Origin: Leptospira sp.
GTDB lineage: Bacteria; Spirochaetota; Leptospiria; Leptospirales; Leptospiraceae
Direction: 5' to 3'
Length of the DNA stretch: 64,000 bases
NCBI GenBank assembly: GCA_027531445.1
Contig: JAPZRK010000007.1
Location: 24,320 to 88,319 of the forward strand
Part shown: one piece after another, positions 23,438 to 33,163 of the stretch
How the letters are laid out: each line of letters opens with the position of its first letter
How positions within the stretch are numbered: the stretch's first letter is position 1
Position numbers and translations under genes: made by a program
The notes under the pieces: generated by a model
What the model was told of the DNA's origin: nothing
The model's database searches: none
Seen by the model: the letters and a program-made list of their open reading frames with translations, nothing else

Positions 23438-23758
23438 TTATTTTTTGAAATTAGGAGAATTGCCAGCTTTAAACGCAATTTTTGAAACTTCAATAGGAAG
23501 CTGTTTTGACAGAATTTTCTTTAAAATCTCATTTCGCATAAATTCTAATTCTTGGGAAATCATCGAATGTTTACAAATAATGGTGAGCTTTCCTTCCTTA
23601 AGTAGAACTGGTTTTGAGCCATCCGCTAGCACATCGCCAACCATTTCTTTCCATTCGCGTTGCAAAATTTTCAATGTTTGATCTATAAAGATTTCTTCTC
23701 TGTTGATTCCTAATTTTTCTAGGCTATGAAACAAATCTGAAATTTCAATTTTTTTCAT
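23438..23758 (-). CDS. dciA: DUF721/DciA family replicative helicase loader
   Basis: W..MVG..LA..SKP and QELEF pattern; position between recF and gyrB. Confidence 0.8.
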   Translation of the reverse strand: MKKIEISDLFHSLEKLGINREEIFIDQTLKILQREWKEMVGDVLADGSKPVLLKEGKLTIICKHSMISQELEFMRNEILKKILSKQLPIEVSKIAFKAGNSPNFKK

Positions 23759-24858
23759 ATCATGTCAGACTTTGTTACGATTCCATTTTTGATGTCAAAA
23801 ATTTCCCTTTCAATGTTCAAACTTCCGACATAATCTTTGATACCTTCGAGATCTGTTGTGGTAAAGAATGCTTGCCCACACTCAGAAATTAAATTAACAA
23901 AATATTCTCTTCGTTTTACATCTAACTCTCTGATTATATCATCAATTAATAAAACTGGCGCTTCCCCTGTTTCTTCCTTAATCATTTGAAAACAAGCAGT
24001 TTTTAAAGCTATCACTGCACTACGCTTTTGACCTTGTGATCCAAAATGACTCAAATCATGATTTTCAAAACCTATGGGTAGATCATCTCGATGATTACCG
24101 CAACTCGTATAACCAATTGATATGTCTTTTCGTAAGTTCTTTTTTAGACGTAACAAATGTTCTTCTTTATCTTTTACATTAGGTATGTATGTTAAATTGA
24201 AATCATCCTTTCCTTGACTTAATAAAATCAAATTTCTATTAAAATAAGTTGAAAGTCGTTCAACAGTAGACTGACGTTGCGCTCGTATTTCCTCTTCTCT
24301 TTTTATCAACGGCTCATTCCAAATCTCAATTTCTGAATCACTGGCATTGTCTTTCTTTAAGGCACTATTTCTTTGTTTTAAAAGATGATTGTATTCGATT
24401 AATTGATTCAAATAATGAGAATTAGTTGATGAAATAAAAGAATCTAAAAATTTTCGCCTTTCTATATTTCCAGATTCAATAATTTTGATGTCTGGAGGAC
24501 TCATGATTACAGAACGAAAGAAACCAACGGAATCTGCTATCCGCTTGATCAATTCACCATTGATTTTTATTTTTTTTCTTTTAATTGAATCTTTTTGAAT
24601 CCCATATTCAAAAGTATACTCTTCACCTTGCGCTTCAAATTCTGCCTTTAAAAATGTAAAAGGTGATTCCCACTTCAATAATTGGTTTTCATCTGATTCA
24701 CGAAAACTTTTTAAATAGGAAAGTAGAGAGATTGATTCGAGTAAGTTAGTTTTTCCTTCTCCATTGTTTCCAATAAAGAAGATTAGACGAGCGTTGAATT
24801 CTAAAGCTGTGTTCGCATGATTTCTAAAATTTGTGAGCGAAATTCGCCTTAAATACAT
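23755..24858 (-). CDS. recF: DNA replication/repair protein RecF
   Basis: GNNGEGKTN Walker A, GSQGQKRS, LLIDD..ELD. Confidence 0.96.
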   Translation of the reverse strand: MYLRRISLTNFRNHANTALEFNARLIFFIGNNGEGKTNLLESISLLSYLKSFRESDENQLLKWESPFTFLKAEFEAQGEEYTFEYGIQKDSIKRKKIKINGELIKRIADSVGFFRSVIMSPPDIKIIESGNIERRKFLDSFISSTNSHYLNQLIEYNHLLKQRNSALKKDNASDSEIEIWNEPLIKREEEIRAQRQSTVERLSTYFNRNLILLSQGKDDFNLTYIPNVKDKEEHLLRLKKNLRKDISIGYTSCGNHRDDLPIGFENHDLSHFGSQGQKRSAVIALKTACFQMIKEETGEAPVLLIDDIIRELDVKRREYFVNLISECGQAFFTTTDLEGIKDYVGSLNIEREIFDIKNGIVTKSDMI

Positions 24859-25976
24859 TACAGTTTCATTGGCATGATTACAGAAACAAAATCACTATCT
24901 GATGGATCCTTAAACAAAACAGGAGCACTTGAAGATGAGAACTCTAGTATAACTTCTGGATCATCAATAACTTTTACAACATCACTTAAATAATCACCCT
25001 TGAAAGCTATCGCTATCGGCTCACCAGAATAATCTATATTCATATTGTGATCAAACATCATTGTACCTGGATTAGATGAACTGATATTTACACTTCCGGG
25101 TGTAAAATTAAGTCTGATTTGTTTTGAAGGCTCTTCTGCGGAAATGAGTGCTTGCTTCAAAAATGTCAGAAAATCTGCTTTCTGAAGTCTTACGGATTGT
25201 GTTGCTTGTTTGGGTATAACTTGTTCGTAGTCTGGAAAGTTTCCATCAATAAGTTTAAACAACAATTCAATATTACCAGAAGATACATAAATTTGTTCCT
25301 CAACAAATCCAATCTTTGCAGTTTCCTTGCCTTCCATCATTTTAAGCATTTCGCGTACTGCTTTGTGAGGAATAATCACACCATTCTTAAATGGAAACTG
25401 TTTTGGAAATTTACGTACTATTTTTGAAAGTCGTCGACCATCCGTACCTACAACAATCAAATCTGTATCATTAGGTTTTAAGAATAAACCATTAAAAACA
25501 AATCTAGTTTCTTCCATAGCCATCGCGTATGATGTTTTACGGAACATTTCTCTTATCGTCTGACATGGGAATTCTACAATACTTGCTTCGTCTACAACTG
25601 GTATCGTTTTGATATCTTCAGAATCAATACCATTTACTTTAAACTTAGTATCCATCTTTCCACTGGCATCCGTAATAAGCGTCTCAGATGAGTCATTACT
25701 ATCACTCGTAGTTAATGCTGTTGTATCAAAGTTTAAATTTTTAAAAATACTTGATAATTGTTTTGCCGGTAAGCTTGCGGAACCTTTCGATCCGACTATT
25801 GCGTTAACAGAAGTTTTAATCGCAATTTCCAAATCTGTTGCAGAAAGGTATACTGAATTGTCCGTAGCTTGAATTTTTAAATTTGAGAGTGCTGACTTTA
25901 TTTCTCTAACGGATATTACTCCATCCACTGAATTGATAGCTTTTAAGAATTCTGTAGTATTGACAGTGAATTTCAT
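24858..25976 (-). CDS. dnaN: DNA polymerase III beta clamp
   Basis: ATDLE, GTDGRRL, GNFPDYEQVIP, C-terminal VIMPMKL. Confidence 0.97.
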   Translation of the reverse strand: MKFTVNTTEFLKAINSVDGVISVREIKSALSNLKIQATDNSVYLSATDLEIAIKTSVNAIVGSKGSASLPAKQLSSIFKNLNFDTTALTTSDSNDSSETLITDASGKMDTKFKVNGIDSEDIKTIPVVDEASIVEFPCQTIREMFRKTSYAMAMEETRFVFNGLFLKPNDTDLIVVGTDGRRLSKIVRKFPKQFPFKNGVIIPHKAVREMLKMMEGKETAKIGFVEEQIYVSSGNIELLFKLIDGNFPDYEQVIPKQATQSVRLQKADFLTFLKQALISAEEPSKQIRLNFTPGSVNISSSNPGTMMFDHNMNIDYSGEPIAIAFKGDYLSDVVKVIDDPEVILEFSSSSAPVLFKDPSDSDFVSVIMPMKL

Positions 25977-26220
25977 TTTCTTCCTCTTTATGTATTTATA
26001 TATTTATAATTATATATTATGTCGTCTTCGTTGTTTCTGTCAGTATGTCGATAAACCCACTTTCTTTCAATTTTTATTGAATTATGTCTTATTTTTTCAG
26101 TCAGAATTATGTTCATTTTTATGTCGCTTATGATCGTTCTAGTCAATAATGGAACCATAATTTGATGCTTATGTCTTATAAACACTTTGTGAACAGTTTA
26201 CTTTCAGGGTTACTGACTAT
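25977..26220. other. Probable oriC (dnaA-dnaN intergenic region)
   Basis: AT-only tract about 25993-26020; four exact TTATGTC (26017, 26082, 26119, 26169) plus four variants; imperfect DnaA boxes TTATAAACA 26176-26184 and TGTGAACAG 26188-26196. Confidence 0.65.
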
Positions 26221-27567
26221 TTATTGGAAGGATATTTGATGTTTGAGGGATTGGTAGATATCCTCAACGTTTCTGTCAGTGGCGATTTTTTCTTGGATTT
26301 TATTGATCCCATGAATTACCGTAGTATGTTGCGCCGAGAAAATTCTTCCAATTTGGGCTTTCGGAAGACCTAACACTTCATTCAAAATTAACATACACAA
26401 ATGGCGAGGTGTAATGTAGTCAGCTTTTCTGCTTTTTCCTAGAAGATCTTTTCGTGCAATGTTCATTTTTTGACATAAAAGATCGATGACCTGATCTGCG
26501 TTAAAGCCAATACGTTTCCTATTGGTCTGAAGTCTGACGTTAGCAATTTCTTTAATTTTGTCTTCTGGTAGAACAAAATAGCTGTAGGCTTTTTTATACA
26601 AAATTAGGTCATTCATGATTCCCAAAAGAGCCCGTGAATCACCTTCAGAATGATTGGAAAGCCAATGTAAAATTTCTTCAGACATGGGTATGTCGTACAA
26701 TTTTGAATAATTTCGGAACATCTCAATTCGAAGAGCAATATCATGTTCTTTTATATCGGCCTGCAAACCGTGAACAAATCTAGACTTCAGTCTGTCGTGT
26801 AAGGGCAATTCATAGCTTGGTCTATCTGAGGCGATTACGATCTGCCGTTTTCTTTCATACAAAAAATTAAATAGGGCAAAAAACTCTTCCTGAGTTTTTT
26901 CTGCACCACCATTTAAAAACTGAATATCATCGAATAGAAGTACGTTATACGATTGATATCTCATTTTGAATGACTCTAAACTATCTCGATTATTTTGTCT
27001 GACCGTAAAGATGAACTCGTTTAAGAAAGAAATACTATTTACATAACGTATTGTTTTCCAAGGATCACGTTTGAGGATTTCGTTTCCAATAGCATGTAAC
27101 AGATGTGTTTTTCCAACGCCTACTGGCCCAAAAATATATAAAGGATTATATTTTGCGGGAGCTTCACTTATACTTTTAGCCGCAGTATAGGCAAGTCTAT
27201 TGCAATCAGAGACAACATAACTATCAAAATTGTATTCTGGGTTTAGGTCGGAATCAACGCCATCAAAACGACCTTCAATGATATCCTTCATTTGTGAAGA
27301 GGATTCTTCGTTGTCTGTGATTAAGACCAGTTTAAAAGCATCACCTTTTACCTGATAAGCGGCCGCTTCTATAAATGAAGAGTATTTTGCTTCAACGTGG
27401 CTCTTTATTGTGGTGGAAGGAGCAGTTACATACATGTCTCTGCCTTCAAATTTTCTAAATCTTAGGGGAGTAATAAAGTTTTTAAAGTAAAATGGCGGTA
27501 CGTGTCTAGATACTTCTTCTAGGATTTCTTCCCAACTAGATTCCAATTCTTTTTTTCCATTTACCAA
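26221..27567 (-). CDS. dnaA: Chromosomal replication initiator DnaA
   Basis: YNPLYIFGPVGVGKTHLL, LFDDIQFL, RLKSRF, HTTVIHG. Confidence 0.98.
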   Translation of the reverse strand: MVNGKKELESSWEEILEEVSRHVPPFYFKNFITPLRFRKFEGRDMYVTAPSTTIKSHVEAKYSSFIEAAAYQVKGDAFKLVLITDNEESSSQMKDIIEGRFDGVDSDLNPEYNFDSYVVSDCNRLAYTAAKSISEAPAKYNPLYIFGPVGVGKTHLLHAIGNEILKRDPWKTIRYVNSISFLNEFIFTVRQNNRDSLESFKMRYQSYNVLLFDDIQFLNGGAEKTQEEFFALFNFLYERKRQIVIASDRPSYELPLHDRLKSRFVHGLQADIKEHDIALRIEMFRNYSKLYDIPMSEEILHWLSNHSEGDSRALLGIMNDLILYKKAYSYFVLPEDKIKEIANVRLQTNRKRIGFNADQVIDLLCQKMNIARKDLLGKSRKADYITPRHLCMLILNEVLGLPKAQIGRIFSAQHTTVIHGINKIQEKIATDRNVEDIYQSLKHQISFQ

Positions 27568-27630
27568 GACGGGTACTATACTTCTATTCAGTAGGTAGAA
27601 TTCAAATGAAAAATCGAAGATACTCTCAGG

Positions 27631-27699
27631 TTATCAAAAATCTTTTTCTTTAAATAAGAAAATTATGTCTCCTTGGTTGTTCGTGGAAAATTACCCACT
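27631..27699. promoter_or_regulatory. Imperfect DnaA-box-like sites upstream of dnaA
   Basis: CGTGGAAAA 27682-27690 (rc TTTTCCACG, one mismatch to TTWTNCACA), TTACCCACT 27691-27699, TTATCAAAA 27631-27639, TTATGTC 27663-27669. Confidence 0.4.
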
Positions 27700-28639
27700 A
27701 ACGAGAAGAAACGCTAAGTTTTAAAAAAAGCTGAGATAGCAAGAAGTATTCTAGAGCGGGAATATTAAAATGCAATTTAGATTTAAAGTCTAAAATATGA
27801 TACACTTTACGTACGTTAGCTTCAAAATTTTCCTTTCTAAATTCATAGATCAACAATAGACAAATCATTTCTAAAAAATCAATGTTGGAAAATTTATCCT
27901 TCATAGGTTTTTTCTCAGACATTTGTTCTCGAATCCAGTTTTCTAATTTGAGAATTAGAATTGAATCATGGCAATTTTCTCTTACGACAGAATGCCATTC
28001 AGATATCACCTCCTCCGGTATTTCAAAAGGATTCATGGATCCACCATAATATTCTTTAAAATCTTTATCGATGGATCGATTCATTGTGCGAATCAGATTT
28101 TGCGGTAAGTAGTTAAACGGAACGCAAACAGAACGAGAAACGATCGTCTTTTTCAATTTGTTCAAATCATTTACAATTAAAATAAACTTTGTATGCTCCG
28201 GAGGTTCTTCCAGCGTTTTTAAAAGAGTTGTTTCCGCTTCGTTATTGATGCGTTGTGCCTCCGGAAACAAAATGATTCGTTTCGTTGAAACATGAGGTTT
28301 ATAAATAATTCTATTTCCAAGTAACCAGCGTATCGTGAACTCTTCGGGATCTTTATCTTTACCGATTGCAATATTTTTATTTCTAGGAAATTGAATGTAG
28401 TCGGGATGTTCCCCTCTCATAAATAGTCGACAGGATTCACAGTTTCCGCAGGAGCTACCGTTGTTACAAAGTAAATGTCTTGAAAATCTTTCAGCAGCAA
28501 ACCACTTACCAACGCCGTCTGGTCCATGAAAGATAAGCACTCCAGGAATGCGATCTTGGTGTTTCAAAAAAGATTTTAGATATGTCAGGGCAACATCTTG
28601 CCCAACTACCTCATCTATTTGAAAATAACCAGGTTCCAT
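27698..28639 (-). CDS. holB: DNA polymerase III delta-prime subunit
   Basis: FHGPDGVGK, CGNCESC zinc motif, [25 protein letters not shown]. Start moved to ATG 28639 to clear ilvE. Confidence 0.88.
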   Translation of the reverse strand: MEPGYFQIDEVVGQDVALTYLKSFLKHQDRIPGVLIFHGPDGVGKWFAAERFSRHLLCNNGSSCGNCESCRLFMRGEHPDYIQFPRNKNIAIGKDKDPEEFTIRWLLGNRIIYKPHVSTKRIILFPEAQRINNEAETTLLKTLEEPPEHTKFILIVNDLNKLKKTIVSRSVCVPFNYLPQNLIRTMNRSIDKDFKEYYGGSMNPFEIPEEVISEWHSVVRENCHDSILILKLENWIREQMSEKKPMKDKFSNIDFLEMICLLLIYEFRKENFEANVRKVYHILDFKSKLHFNIPALEYFLLSQLFLKLSVSSR

Positions 28640-28649
28640 TGAACGTGAA

Positions 28650-29567
28650 TTAGTAGATTGGAGTAAGCCAAGAGGAATAGTTACTTTCTTCTCCGCGAAC
28701 GATTTTGAAAAATAAAGTTTGTAGTTCTTTGGAAATTGATCCCATACTTCCTTCTCCAACTCTGCGACGATCAACTTCTTTTACCCAAGCAACTTGGACA
28801 CCTGTGCCTGAGAAAAATATTTCGTCTGCTATATAAAGTTCAGAGCGTGCGACGTCTCTCTCGATTACTTTATAATTCAGATCGCTAGCAATTTTTATAA
28901 GGGATCTTCTTGTGATGCCTTCCAATATTGATGAACCAATACTAGGTGTTATGATCTCGCCGTTTCGGACTAAAAAAATATTTTCAGCTGAACCTTCTGA
29001 GACAAACCCTCTTCCATCTAAAAAAATTGCTTCATCATATCCATTTTGTACAGCCTCAGATTTTGCAAGGGCGGAGTTGACATATCCTCCACTTGCTTTT
29101 GCAAGCGTCGGGATTTGATTGTCAGAAAATCTTTGCCAAGTGCTCACCATGGTTGTGAGTCCATTTTGCGTATCCAAGTAATCATCCAATTTTAAAACAT
29201 AGATTGCGATCTGAGTTTTTACGTCGTGAAATCTTGGAGATAGCTGTAATGCCGATGTATAAATGATCGGTCTGAGATAAATATTTTGTTTGTAGTTTGA
29301 TTGTTTGATGAGGTCAATCGTGATCGCGACAAGCTCATCTGGAGTCTTATCAAAATTCAACTGCATGATTTTTGCAGAATTGACCAAACGTTGGTAGTGG
29401 TCTCTTAACCGAAAAATATAGAGGTTACCTTTTGATTCATTATAATATCCTCTAATGCCTCCGAATACAGAAGTTCCATATTGAAAGGCATGTGTTTGAA
29501 TGCTTATGTTTGCTTCCGAGGAAGGAACGATCTTTCCTTCAAAATAAGATAGGTCTTTTGTATTCAT
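28650..29567 (-). CDS. ilvE: Branched-chain amino acid aminotransferase
   Basis: [22 protein letters not shown] lysine, [15 protein letters not shown]. Confidence 0.93.
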
Positions 29568-29728
29568 TGTTATGGAGATTCCTAGACTTCCAGATTTTAG
29601 ATCTTACCTTTTTAGAAAATGAATTTTATCTTTTTTTATCTCGAACGAGAAGCCCTACAATTTGTTATCGTTCTAAGTGTAGAAACTTTGTTTCACAAAA
29701 TCTTATAAGGTTTGTTAGAAGACATAAT

Positions 29729-31603
29729 ATGAGTTCATCTTTTTATCCGGATCGTTTTGATTGTATCGTTGTCGGAGCAGGGCATGCAGGAACGGAAGCA
29801 GCATACATCGCTTCGCGGGGTGGATTGAAAACACTGCTCATCACAATGAACTTAGATACGATTGGGCAAATGAGTTGCAATCCTGCAATCGGTGGAATTG
29901 CGAAAGGGCATATGGTTCGCGAAGTAGATGCACTAGGCGGACTCATGGGACGAACAATTGATGCTACTGGAATCCAATTCAAAATGCTGAACACATCCAA
30001 AGGTCCTTCGGTTTGGGCACCTCGCGCTCAAGCAGAAAAGAAGCAGTACCAACTTGCAATCAAACACCAACTTGAGCAGATTCAAAATCTTTCCATAAGA
30101 CAAGATACTGTGGAAGATCTCATTGTGGAAAACAATCAGATCGTTGGATTGATCACAGGTAGAGGATTTGAATTCAAAACAAACTATGTCATCTTAACAA
30201 CGGGAACCTTTCTCTCCAGCGTGATACACATTGGAACATATCAAAAAGAATCTGGAAGGATTGGTGAACCAACAACCAAAGGTTTGTCCGCAACACTTGC
30301 TCGCTTTCAATTTCGCTTAGGAAGATTGAAGACGGGAACACCTGCTCGGGTGCACAAGAACTCGATCAACATTCCTATTTTAGAAGAACAACATGGAGAT
30401 GAAAACCCAAAGCCTTTTTCATTTTCAACAAAGAAGATCGATCGGAGACAGATTCCTTGCTACATCACTTATACGAATGAAGCGACTCATACTTTCATCA
30501 AAGAGAATTTAGAATTCTCACCGATGTATTCCGGACAAATCAAAAGCATTGGTCCACGTTATTGTCCTTCTATTGAAGATAAGGTTGTTCGATTTGCAGA
30601 GAGAGATCGCCATCAGATTTTTATCGAGCCTGAAGGTTATGATACAAATGAAATGTATTTGAATGGAGTGTCGACAAGTCTTCCGGAAGAAGTCCAATGG
30701 AAATTTCTGCGCACGATCCGCGGCTTAGAAGAAGTAGAACTCATGCGACCTGGCTATGCTATTGAATATGACTTTGTGGATCCAACAGAACTTTCGCCTA
30801 CTTTGGAAACGAAGAAGATCAAAGGCCTCTTTCATGCAGGTCAGATCAATGGAACTACCGGCTATGAAGAAGCTGCCGCCCAAGGTCTCGTTGCCGCTTA
30901 TAATGTAATTCGATCTTTCAAGAAAGAAGAACCCATTCTGTTTCCTAGAAGTGAATCTTATATCGGTGTGCTTGTTGATGATTTAGTTTTCAAAGGTGTG
31001 GAAGATCCATATCGCATGTTCACAAGTCGGGCAGAGTATCGACTTCTTTTAAGACAAGACAATGCAGACAAGCGACTTATGAAGTATGGTTACGAGATGG
31101 GTCTTGTATCGAAAGAATCTTTCGATGAAATGAATGATCGTTACGCTCGTATCGAAAATTTAAAAACGCAAATCTTTGCACAACATATGAAGCCCTCTGA
31201 TGAGTTGTCTACCCTACTCTCTGAACGAAAGATTTCAAATTATAAATTTGGCCACACGGTAGCTTCCTTTTTGAAACGTCCGGAAATCAAAATCAATGAT
31301 TTGGAAATGTTGTTACCAGATCTTTCACTCCTTACGGAAGAAGAGAAAGCAGTCGTAGAAATGGAAGTAAAGTATGAAGGTTATTTGAAACGAGAACTTG
31401 AGACGATCGACTACCGTAAAAAGTTTTTAACACTACCGATTCCAACGGACTTTGAATATGCAAAAGTCAATGGATTGAAAACAGAAGCAGTTTTAAAATT
31501 GGAAAAACATCGGCCACTTAATTTAGAAATGGCTTCTCACATTTCCGGAGTAGATCCCTCTGATGTTGATCTACTCCTCTATCACTTAGTTGAAAAAAAG
31601 TAA
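29729..31603 (+). CDS. mnmG: tRNA uridine 5-carboxymethylaminomethyl modification enzyme MnmG (GidA)
   Basis: [56 protein letters not shown]. Start moved to ATG 29729. Confidence 0.97.
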
Positions 31604-32362
31604 TCAGTCCTTCTTGGTAATTTTTGATTTTGTGCCACTCTCATAAAAGAGAGTGTGCGTCTTGTCTACTACCCACGACTCCCCTTGTTTCACGTGAAAC
31701 GAAAAACTTTCTAACAATCCGTCCGAACGATACTTCAATTTATGGACTCGTCTTGCTTCACCTTGAAAGAATTCTCTTTCAACTAGATTTCCTTTTGCAT
31801 CAAACTTGAAGTGAATTTCACCGAGTGCTTTCTTTTTATCATCAAGTAATGTTTGGATTTGAACATTCGGCCTTTTTGGATCGATAGAAAATTTGAAAGC
31901 TTCTATGTCATTGGCTTCTGCACTTTTTCCTTCGCCGGAAATGACTGATCCATCTTTGTCCGTCGTGAGGTTGTATTGGATCAGAATGCTTCCATCTCCA
32001 CTCCGAGTTGTAAGCTTTTTCAGATATTGAGTTTTGTAAAAGAATTCTTTCTTCTCGACGAGAACGTCATTGGCACCATAACTTTCTTCCGCGACTAGCA
32101 ATCCATCTCTGTAAACAAACCTAGTTTTGCCATCAGACTTGCCTTCTTTATCTGAATACGTTTCCTGAACCAACCTTCCATCTTCATCGTATTCATATTC
32201 AGCAACGTAAGTTACGATTCCTTCGCCGTTACGAATGATTTCTTTGCTTGGACCTTTCGCTCCTTTATAGAGAGTGAATTGATCTTTGTAAGACCACTTG
32301 CCAGGAGTGTAAGCAAGCAACATAGACGAGAAAGAAAAGATGAAAAGAAAAATGAATTTCAT
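31604..32362 (-). CDS. Exported hypothetical protein with YD/RHS-like repeats
   Basis: Signal peptide MKFIFLFIFSFSSMLLA; repeats YEYDEDGRLVQE, FKFDAKGNLVER, YRSDGLLES. Confidence 0.75.
   Translation of the reverse strand: MKFIFLFIFSFSSMLLAYTPGKWSYKDQFTLYKGAKGPSKEIIRNGEGIVTYVAEYEYDEDGRLVQETYSDKEGKSDGKTRFVYRDGLLVAEESYGANDVLVEKKEFFYKTQYLKKLTTRSGDGSILIQYNLTTDKDGSVISGEGKSAEANDIEAFKFSIDPKRPNVQIQTLLDDKKKALGEIHFKFDAKGNLVEREFFQGEARRVHKLKYRSDGLLESFSFHVKQGESWVVDKTHTLFYESGTKSKITKKD
31686..31701. promoter_or_regulatory. parS site
   Basis: TGTTTCACGTGAAACG, 15/16 to TGTTTCACGTGAAACA; 1.5 kb from parA. Confidence 0.88.
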
Positions 32363-32419: not shown

Positions 32420-33163
32420 ATGTCATCCACTGAAATAGAAGAACAAGCTAAGATATTTTTACCAACAATGTTTGAGAGAATCCAAAACGATTTCAACTGG
32501 AATCGAATTGAACAGTACCAGGAATTTTTAATTCGCCAAAATGAAAGAGGAGGATTCTTTTCTAAGAACGATGCCGCCGTTATTTTTGAGCGTCACATTC
32601 TAGACTGTCTTCTCTTTGTCTGGAAGTTGAAGGAGGAAGGTTTAGTTTCACGTGAAACAAAAGTGGCGGATGTTGGAACAGGACCGGGACTTCCTGGTTT
32701 TATATTCCTGTGTTTGAAGCAATTGCCTTCTGTCATCTTGATTGATTCCCAAAGACGTAAACTATTTCTCTTAGAGGAGGAAGTGATGCATGGCAATTTG
32801 TCGGAGGTCAAAGATAGAATTACATTTAGTTATGAACGAGCAGAAGATATGAAAGCAAAGTTTGATGTAGTGACATCACGCGCTGTTGTTCCCTATCCGT
32901 TTATGATTGAAGTTGCATCCAACTTGGTAAAGCGAGGAGGAGTATTATGTCCCTATCTCGGACAACTGCGCTTTGATGAAAGTGTAGAAAAGAGAGTCCT
33001 TCAGTATTCTGGATTTCATATCAAAAAAGAAATCGAACTTTCGGAATTAGACTTTTTAGGAAAGAGACATATCAAGATACTGCAAAAGGATTCAGATACG
33101 AAACCAGGTTATCCAAGACTTTGGAAAGATATCGTGAAGGAGACAAAGCAAGCGAATGGGTAA
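32420..33163 (+). CDS. rsmG: 16S rRNA m7G methyltransferase RsmG (GidB)
   Basis: [27 protein letters not shown]; between mnmG and parA. Confidence 0.93.
32644..32659. promoter_or_regulatory. parS site inside rsmG
   Basis: AGTTTCACGTGAAACA, 15/16 to consensus; reads VSRET in the rsmG frame. Confidence 0.88.

Follow-up and report, generated by a model that had tools for sequence, protein, structure and literature searches.

Which sequences mark the start of chromosome replication in Leptospira, and which protein reads them? To our knowledge, no Leptospira origin has been dissected by experiment so far. The question is raised here by the 244-nt gap between dnaA and dnaN in a 64,000-nt stretch of a Leptospira genome (the window, whose positions are used throughout), in which the heptamer TTATGTC, or GACATAA on the dnaA strand, is repeated. 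Literature searches on the motif and on the Leptospira oriC found no description of it. We find that the repeated motif is a real, conserved, non-chance element, and we tentatively propose, with a rough probability of 0.4, that it is the site of a sequence-specific regulator of the origin and of dnaA other than DnaA itself.

The dnaA-dnaN gap as probable origin

The genome comprises 3.99 Mb in 134 contigs with 38.6% G+C, and the window is C66:24320-88319. Its DnaA shares 81% identity with that of the nearest genome compared, 78% with that of Leptospira sp. 'Mane' and 77% with that of L. idonii, which places the source among the saprophyte-clade Leptospira. The minus-strand gene order is gyrA, gyrB, a DciA-family gene, recF, dnaN, dnaA, a holB-like gene and a class IV aminotransferase gene, and mnmG is transcribed opposite to the gyrA-dnaA block. 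Both dnaN (24858-25976, minus strand) and dnaA (26221-27567, minus strand) were recognized by Pfam, and the gap between them spans 25977-26220. The cumulative GC skew of the whole 216-kb contig has its minimum at 29057, 3 kb from the gap, with negative skew to the left of the minimum and positive skew to the right. Given this minimum, the dnaA-dnaN synteny, an AT-only tract, arrays of DnaA boxes and a layout common to 100 Leptospiraceae genomes, the gap is very probably the chromosomal oriC, to within a few kb, as a first-pass annotation of the window had proposed.

Two features of the neighbourhood are recorded here as observations. The DciA-family gene (PF05258) lies at 23438-23758, between recF and gyrB in the origin operon. 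In addition, two near-perfect canonical parS sites, TGTTTCACGTGAAACG and AGTTTCACGTGAAACA, are found at 31686-31701 and 32644-32659, ~5.5 and ~6.4 kb from the origin; with true parS sites located there, canonical parS was discarded as an identity for the motif.

A repeated and conserved word

TTATGTC occurs in the gap four times in one orientation (26017, 26082, 26119 and 26169, all on the plus strand), with the variants TTATGTA at 25988, GTATGTC at 26043, TTATGTT at 26107 and TTATGAT at 26128. It recurs outside the gap at 27663 (plus strand) and, reversed, at 29721. No perfect TTWTNCACA is present on either strand of 25977-26220, and an AT-only tract of 28 nt runs from 25993 to 26020. Every position listed in the first-pass annotation was recovered. 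Numbered from the dnaA side and read as GACATAA on the minus strand, copy 1 (26169-26175) is fused to a DnaA box, with TGTTTATAA running straight into GACATAA; copy 2 (26119-26125) forms the conserved block GACATAAA-AT between variable flanks; copy 3 (26082-26088) has the context ATAAGACATAAT, which matches a longer consensus described below at 11 of 12 positions; and copy 4 (26017-26023) adjoins the AT tract.

Chance does not account for these copies. Genome-wide the heptamer is rare, the 362 copies on both strands corresponding to 0.011 expected per 244 nt per strand, and 20,000 composition-matched shuffles of the gap held a mean of 0.057 and a maximum of two copies, against four in the real gap. 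Any non-trivial 7-mer reaches at least four occurrences in only 72 of 32,543 genome segments of 244 nt (0.22%), and many of the segments listed resemble short tandem repeats.

The dnaA-dnaN region was compared with those of 39 same-genus genomes (DnaA 59-81% identical) and 60 genomes from other Leptospiraceae genera. When the 40 sequences of the genus were aligned with MAFFT, at least 90% of them shared the following blocks, given on the dnaA strand: GACATA of copy 1 (26175-26170), GACATAAAAAT of copy 2 (26125-26115), GACATAAT of copy 3 (26088-26081), CAATAAAAATTGA (26079-26067), TTTAT (26055-26051), ACATACTGACAGAA (26048-26035) and ACGACATAATATATAATT of copy 4 (26025-26008). The core of CAATAAAAATTGA, TCAATAAAAATTGA, is an inverted repeat, and the same block contains the TTGAAA of a possible TTGAAA-17-CATACT promoter found in a promoter scan. 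All four GACATAA copies are position-conserved in the 40 genus genomes, copies 1 and 2 being islands amid diverged sequence. The motif is better conserved than the neighbouring DnaA boxes, two central bases of which vary freely.

The conservation extends to the origins of ~100 Leptospiraceae genomes. GACATA(A/T) is present 2-4 times in the dnaA-dnaN gap of the 60 genomes from other genera, and across four groups of genera it averages 2.2-3.6 per origin against 0.12-0.18 in shuffles. Outside the genus it occupies two near-invariant places, one after the box array, as CTGTAAATAA-GACATAAT, and one as ATG(A/C)GACATATT(T/C)C in 57 of the 60 genomes. The origin copies of the genus all point in one direction, and some of those in pathogens are reversed. 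In the other families of the class, the sequence downstream of dnaA is without the motif, and dnaN does not follow dnaA there. A known RNA family within the gap was also considered and set aside, an Rfam scan of 25800-27900 with E-values giving no relevant family.

Relaxed DnaA boxes and the candidate unwinding region

The first-pass annotation had further supposed that the origin uses TTATGTC rather than canonical DnaA boxes. The motif is real, but boxes of a relaxed consensus, TTATNNACA, are also present and are position-conserved throughout the family. A box cluster of the kind expected at an oriC appears only under this relaxed consensus, by which boxes are 8-19 fold above shuffles in 100 Leptospiraceae genomes. 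The dnaA-proximal pair (26176-26195, plus strand) consists of TTATAAACA (26176-26184) and, with one mismatch, TTGTGAACA (26187-26195). A second pair (26037-26054, minus strand) consists of TTATCGACA (26054-26046) followed by a weak TACTGACAG (26045-26037) and is proximal to the 28-nt AT-only tract, the candidate DNA-unwinding element (DUE), which is located directly before the dnaN ribosome-binding site and has an AT-rich counterpart in the corresponding place in all genera. At the DUE-proximal column relatives have TTATGCACA, TTATGAACA or TTATCAACA, the first of these being a perfect box.

The box layout is identical in every genus and has two parts in opposite orientation. After the dnaA stop, the dnaA strand carries two to five (C/T)TGTNNATAA words, mostly TGTAAATAA (the reverse complement of TTATTTACA), which cluster at -280 to -200 from dnaN, and a forward TTATNNACA box follows at -120 to -40. 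Boxes and motif are physically joined. The fusion TGTNNATA(A/G)GACATA is found in 34 of 40 genus genomes, 19 of 20 genomes of the pathogen genus (g12) and 13 of 20 genomes of other genera, and the fusion of a DnaA box with GACATA is kept in 68 of 100 genomes overall; a second box overlaps the motif as TTATCGACATAC. When a DnaA box is defined by at least seven of nine matches to TTATNCACA or to the local TTATNNACA, the motif falls short, as TTATGTCGT, TTATGTCTT and TTATGTCGC match at 4-6 of nine positions and the ACA half is absent.

A co-oriented box pair stands beside the unwinding region, and relatives have TTATCTAC-TTATTTACA or TTATGTACATATTTACA there. On the strand with the AT tract to its 5' side, the box adjoining this tract has the sequence TGTCGATAA, which we take to be the R1 orientation of E. 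coli oriC. DnaA-trios (3'-NAN-5') were sought as a run of at least three within 16 bp, on the strand where the box reads TGTGGATAA, a strand rule that we assume from the E. coli R1 and B. subtilis sequences; on that strand the window reads GTC GTC TTC GTT GTT, with no central A. The basal unwinding system of B. subtilis oriC comprises a DnaA-box pair, DnaA-trios and an AT-rich region (PMC8287927, PMC10721633). The Leptospira origin resembles it in having TTATCGACA with a weak second box, a short spacer, the AT tract and dnaN, and pathogenic Leptospira have the run 3'-CAT GAT GAG GAT-5' on the expected strand. It differs in that the expected trio strand of the window, by the assumed rule, is T-rich without a periodic A, and GACATAA is no trio. 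In the pathogens themselves (g12, L120-L139), a module ~60-100 nt before dnaN, made of TTATGTACATATTTACA, these trios and an AT tract, resembles a textbook unwinding module, with two TGTACA words (EbfC-type GTnAC palindromes) flanking the trios. The first-pass suggestion that the heptamer is itself an unwinding-element repeat is unlikely, since the word is also found in double-stranded palindromes and at promoter-region sites far from origins.

Copies at dnaA, dnaN and mnmG

The dnaA promoter has a further GACATAA copy upstream of it (27663-27669, minus strand), at a distance of ~95 nt from the annotated start of the gene. Of the 36 genus loci that extend to this point, 34 have this copy exactly and two have GACATAG, and g12, g13 and g5 contain it in 17 of 17 genomes. 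No TTATNNACA box was found in the dnaA-upstream regions examined. The candidate dnaA promoter itself (TTGAAT ... TATAGT, 27575-27605, minus strand) is a conserved block of the genus, and its pathogen counterpart, TTGAGT...TACTGT, agrees with the dnaA start mapped in L. interrogans, which is 269 nt upstream of the gene. The dnaA copy lies ~65 nt upstream of the conserved -35, about -105 or ~100 nt upstream of the start site. On the plus strand, another copy (29721-29727) abuts the true mnmG start (ATG at 29730), with GACATAATATG in 5 of 5 relatives.

The L. interrogans dnaN start site has been mapped 96 nt upstream of the gene (PMC5243855 supplement). It falls 14 nt beyond ATGAGACATATTTC, so that the copy occupies -27 to -16, within the -35/-10 spacer. 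In our window, the best sigma-70-like match in 1.9 kb is CTGACA-16-CATAAT (10/12, 26043->26016), whose CATAAT comes from copy 4 and both of whose hexamers are within conserved blocks; copy 4 may therefore have a double role, as motif and as part of a promoter-like match aimed at dnaN. The dnaA-upstream copy is weakly promoter-like (TTTCCA-16-CATAAT). Copies 1-3 have no -35-like hexamer 16-18 nt upstream under a sigma-70 criterion that includes T at position 6, and promoter-like matches in the scan number 9, against 7.6 in shuffles. A general -10 element was rejected for copies 1-3 on the promoter scan together with the L. interrogans start-site table. Compared by eye, sites for sigma-28, sigma-54, EbfC (GTnAC), LexA and HemR (TGACA-N6-TGACA) do not fit either.

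A longer word at other loci

A longer word, with the consensus ATGAGACATAAT, contains the heptamer as its core. The full word accompanies 13 of the 362 genomic copies, where ~0.6 would be expected as estimated from base frequencies. The 12-mer ATTATGTCTCAT occurs 9-13 times per genome in 13 genomes of the genus, against 0-2 times for its reversed control, and the origin copies in the window match it at 10-11 positions. The genus shows a ~5 fold enrichment of the 10-mer, g4 one of 3-4 fold and the pathogen genus g12 one of 2-3 fold; in g13, g14, g3, g6 and g8 the 10-mer is not enriched. Inverted pairs of the form GACATAA N6-25 TTATGTC are found four times in the genome, where our own estimate gives about 0.3.

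Several of these sites lie on secondary replicons. In the three-replicon genome G003, the 74-kb replicon has ATTATGTCTCAT-N8-TTGACA before a rep-like gene. In L. interrogans, the gap between a ParB-like and a winged-helix gene has the word separated by 7 nt from a following TTGACA; relative to the mapped start, the word occupies -55 to -44 (PMC5243855 supplement). The long word is also on a plasmid-like contig (C32) of the present genome. Other copies are at flagellar genes, either in front of the gene or at its start, these genes being fliG, fliI and flhF in this genome and flhF and fliY in G003. At the fliG start codon, GAATTATGTC(A/T)CATG is kept in 30 of 30 genus genomes, as is GAAAATTTTGTCTCATTA ~40 nt further upstream, with a variable spacer between them. 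Both 23S rRNA genes of G003 have the word ~440 nt upstream.

Which protein might read the word?

DnaA domain IV (encoded at 26221-26480) retains the equivalents of Arg399, His434, Thr435 and His439 in Leptospiraceae. Across all Leptospiraceae genera, however, the Pro423 equivalent is A, S or T, the Asp433 equivalent is Q, E, K, T or N, and the domain IV loop is one residue shorter, unlike in the other families of the class, where domain IV is canonical and FG(R/K)xDHTTV is kept. The Pro423 and Asp433 changes fit the free choice at box positions 5 and 6. In one unrelated genome, TTATTAACA boxes are said to be coupled with loss of both P423 and D433. Co-variation of the motif with residue 433 was considered and dropped, the residue changing while the motif stays constant. 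No second protein with Bac_DnaA_C (DnaA domain IV) was found in this genome, and DnaA being its sole carrier, a second domain IV protein was dismissed as the binder. The HU/IHF family has exactly one gene in this genome, and its product is nearest to ordinary HU; an IHF-like pair was dismissed for the same reason, only the single HU-like gene being present. Hbb was not among the structure matches of this protein at E <= 0.001. By eye, the IHF consensus WATCAANNNNTTR has no match in the motif, which leaves it short of an IHF- or Hbb-type site. Overall, the in silico search for a cognate DNA-binding protein gave no candidate.

From the motif, its conservation, its position relative to boxes and mapped starts and its over-representation in the genome, we infer that a protein other than DnaA binds the word. 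The simplest reading is a separate factor, as relaxed classical boxes are already present and the motif is without their ACA half. Throughout the Leptospiraceae, the origin runs from the dnaA stop through relaxed TGTNNATAA boxes, a spacer, one or two opposite boxes and the AT-only tract to dnaN. In this reading TTATGTC/GACATAA, outside the boxes, is the core of a separate recognition word, ATGAGACATAAT, which a DNA-binding protein other than DnaA would read. The sites of the proposed factor abut DnaA boxes (at the junction of TGTTTATAA and GACATAA) or overlap them (TTATCGACATAC); one covers the core of the dnaN promoter mapped in L. interrogans, and another lies ~100 nt upstream of the dnaA start site. 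The inferred effect, direction included, would be a control by the factor over the ease with which DnaA fills the origin and over the level of dnaA and dnaN transcription.

Several lines of evidence argue for such a factor. All four copies are in blocks kept in at least 90% of the genus, and the motif is conserved more strongly than the boxes that it adjoins. The GTC of its 3' half misfits the ACA of the local boxes, which are themselves enriched and arranged in two parts. Several sites at oriC overlap or abut DnaA boxes, as those of a regulator would. The core is found upstream of the dnaA promoter, where there is no TTATNNACA box, and the long word is enriched over its reversed control and forms four inverted pairs. 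It is placed at parB-rep gaps here, in G003 and in L. interrogans, and at flagellar genes; with dnaA, the L. interrogans dnaN promoter, fliG and rep promoters of secondary replicons among its sites, the distribution is that expected of a regulon. The varying position relative to start sites (-27 to -16, -55 to -44, about -105) is the behaviour of a factor site, unlike that of a fixed promoter element, and together with the palindromic pairs and the invariance of seven bases it points to a sequence-specific protein site. Against this, no cognate protein emerged in silico, with DnaA the only domain IV protein and a single HU-family protein; the long word is unenriched in g13, g14, g3, g6 and g8; some copies are near contig ends, possibly in repeated elements; and the fliG and mnmG sites touch start codons, so that other constraints could keep them.

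The remaining counter-evidence leads to the main rival, a somewhat unlikely one in our judgement, in which GACATAA/TTATGTC is a second, lineage-specific DnaA site. Domain IV would then read both TTATNNACA and (A)TTATGTC(T/G)CA, the latter being similar to a canonical box into which one base is inserted between TTAT and C-CA, and the copies would serve origin filling and dnaA autoregulation. Motif and box have TTAT in common, and the equivalent of Arg399, which reads the TTAT part, is retained; loss of Pro423 and Asp433 with the shorter loop, in all Leptospiraceae and unlike in the other families of the class, makes a second binding mode possible. In most bacteria, DnaA boxes are the element common to the origin and the dnaA promoter region, and here GACATAA is the only motif common to both. 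Likewise, rep and par regions of secondary replicons often contain DnaA boxes, and those of this genome carry the motif. The co-orientation of the genus copies is as in DnaA-oligomer arrays. Moreover, Borrelia DnaA binds DNA without recognisable boxes and the spirochaete DnaA box is still undefined, leaving spirochaete DnaA specificity unsettled (PMC9879097). However, canonical-like boxes, enriched and classically arranged, are already there, the motif fits a box at 4-6 of nine positions only and is missing the ACA half, and it stays constant while the Asp433 position varies among Q, E, K, T and N. Copy 4 is also on the unwinding side of the DUE-proximal boxes, in an orientation wrong for an R1-type array, and the flagellar-gene sites and palindromic pairs suit a transcription factor better.

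Two other readings give the word to a DNA-bending protein or to transcription and RNA. It is improbable that, in parallel to Borrelia Hbb, the single HU/IHF-family protein binds the word preferentially, bending the DNA at the origin, at plasmid rep promoters and at recombination sites. The site is asymmetric and ~12 bp long, exactly one family gene is present, and the distribution (origin, plasmid rep/par gaps, an attC-like neighbour, flagellar genes) resembles that of IHF sites in other bacteria. In B. burgdorferi, the dnaA-dnaN gap contains a specific Hbb site (Kobryn et al. 2000, cited by PMC2811001). The protein here nevertheless looks like ordinary HU, with Hbb absent from its structure matches at the same threshold, the motif is unlike WATCAANNNNTTR, and four to five sharp bends in 244 bp would be unusual. 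It is very improbable that the copies are transcription or RNA signals, either the -10-like CATAAT of promoters towards dnaN or a motif of the dnaA-dnaN and mnmG mRNAs. Copy 4 does provide the best sigma-70-like match, with conserved hexamers, the dnaA-upstream copy gives its TTTCCA-16-CATAAT, six of six local copies are on the sense strand of the neighbouring gene, and the copies at mnmG and fliG reach the start codon. Promoter-like matches hardly exceed those in shuffles (9 vs 7.6), though, copies 1-3 are without a conserved -35, and two copies end in CATAAG and CATAAA, without the key final T. In addition, the L. interrogans dnaN start, 14 nt past the motif, is too distant for a -10, pathogen origins have reversed copies, GACATAAT is unenriched upstream of the mapped start sites in the L. 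interrogans table, and there is no Rfam family match.

Comparison with known origin systems

Returning to a separate factor, several bacteria have origin regulators whose sites overlap DnaA boxes: CtrA in Caulobacter, Spo0A in B. subtilis, HP1021 in H. pylori, MtrA in M. tuberculosis and AdpA in Streptomyces. Like the sites of these regulators, the Leptospiraceae word is short, lineage-specific and repeated at oriC, where it abuts or overlaps DnaA boxes, and it is found also at dnaA, dnaN, flagellar and secondary-replicon rep promoters. Unlike them, ATGAGACATAAT resembles none of the known sites and is family-wide, in saprophytes and pathogens alike. An unlikely extension of this reading makes the one factor that recognizes ATGAGACATAAT a master regulator of the cell cycle, CtrA-like in logic and present in the pathogens too, that would couple origin firing, dnaA and dnaN transcription, the replication and partition of secondary replicons and plasmid-like elements, and the expression of flagellar genes. 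With the DnaA box TTATNCACA and its lineage-specific variants (TTGTCCACA, TTTTCCACA, TCATTCACN and the Thermotoga 12-mer), the motif has TTAT in common. The motif is like a DnaA box in being asymmetric and in its presence both in oriC and before dnaA, in a lineage where the base-contact residues of DnaA are altered; it is unlike one in having no ACA/CACA half and in coexisting with TTATNNACA boxes in the same origin. The Borrelia Hbb site (PMC2811001) is likewise a specific non-DnaA site in a spirochaete dnaA-dnaN gap (here a candidate one). It is a single HU/IHF-family site, in contrast to four to five here, and the two are likened by location, not by sequence.

The analysis provides a map of the origin for the whole family, with its promoters, its unwinding tract and two arrays of relaxed boxes, and a new invariant word found at the origin, at the dnaA promoter and in the rep/par regions of all secondary replicons examined. 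Whether the word is read by a new regulator or by DnaA in a second binding mode, the answer would explain the control of replication start in a genus with major zoonotic pathogens. Better leptospiral shuttle vectors are a possible gain, and the 12-bp word offers a simple route to its binder via pull-down.

Further occurrences of the word

Additional loci with the word or its core were observed in the present genome (G000) and in relatives. A secondary replicon here has a perfect 20-bp palindrome, GACATAATGTTAATTATGTC, between a rep-like gene and parB-parA (G000 C124:26910-27071, L266), and the identical palindrome is found on the 278-kb replicon of G003 (C2 about 1880-1920, L209). Just upstream of smc (G000 C134:21527-21683), four GACATAA/TTATGTC copies form two inverted pairs. 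These copies are partly inside the 5' end of a divergent gene, and one is kept in G003, where it encodes EYYVS; coding constraint may explain its retention. A conserved element that contains attC-like core sites (GTTAGG ... CCTAAC) and has ATTATGTCTCAT at its end follows the 16S rRNA gene, ~170-300 nt downstream. It is present in G003 at L202 and L203, two copies 3.7 kb apart, and here at C100:1-260 (L265).

Some 12-mer copies are near contig ends and may belong to repeated elements. Three paralogous intergenic elements of the form GCAACTTCC(C/G)ATAAT-N4-(A/C)TTATGTCG(C/T)AT were observed at G000 C57:14802, C114:80053 and C69:22187 (L262-L264); to judge by their sequence they could form a hairpin, and Rfam gave nothing for them at E <= 0.01. 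In G003, a comparable element adjoins a match to Flavo-1 RNA (L210:810-906). Flavo-1 RNA was rejected as their identity, its matches lying beside one G003 site and not at the three G000 GCAACTTCC(C/G)ATAAT...TTATGTCGCAT loci. Finally, arrays of TATGTCTCAT with 58-65 nt spacing are present in two large-genome Leptospiraceae of g3 (G042 C416:80-461; G043 C244:7958-8141, C309 and C535), and these may be repeat arrays of some kind.
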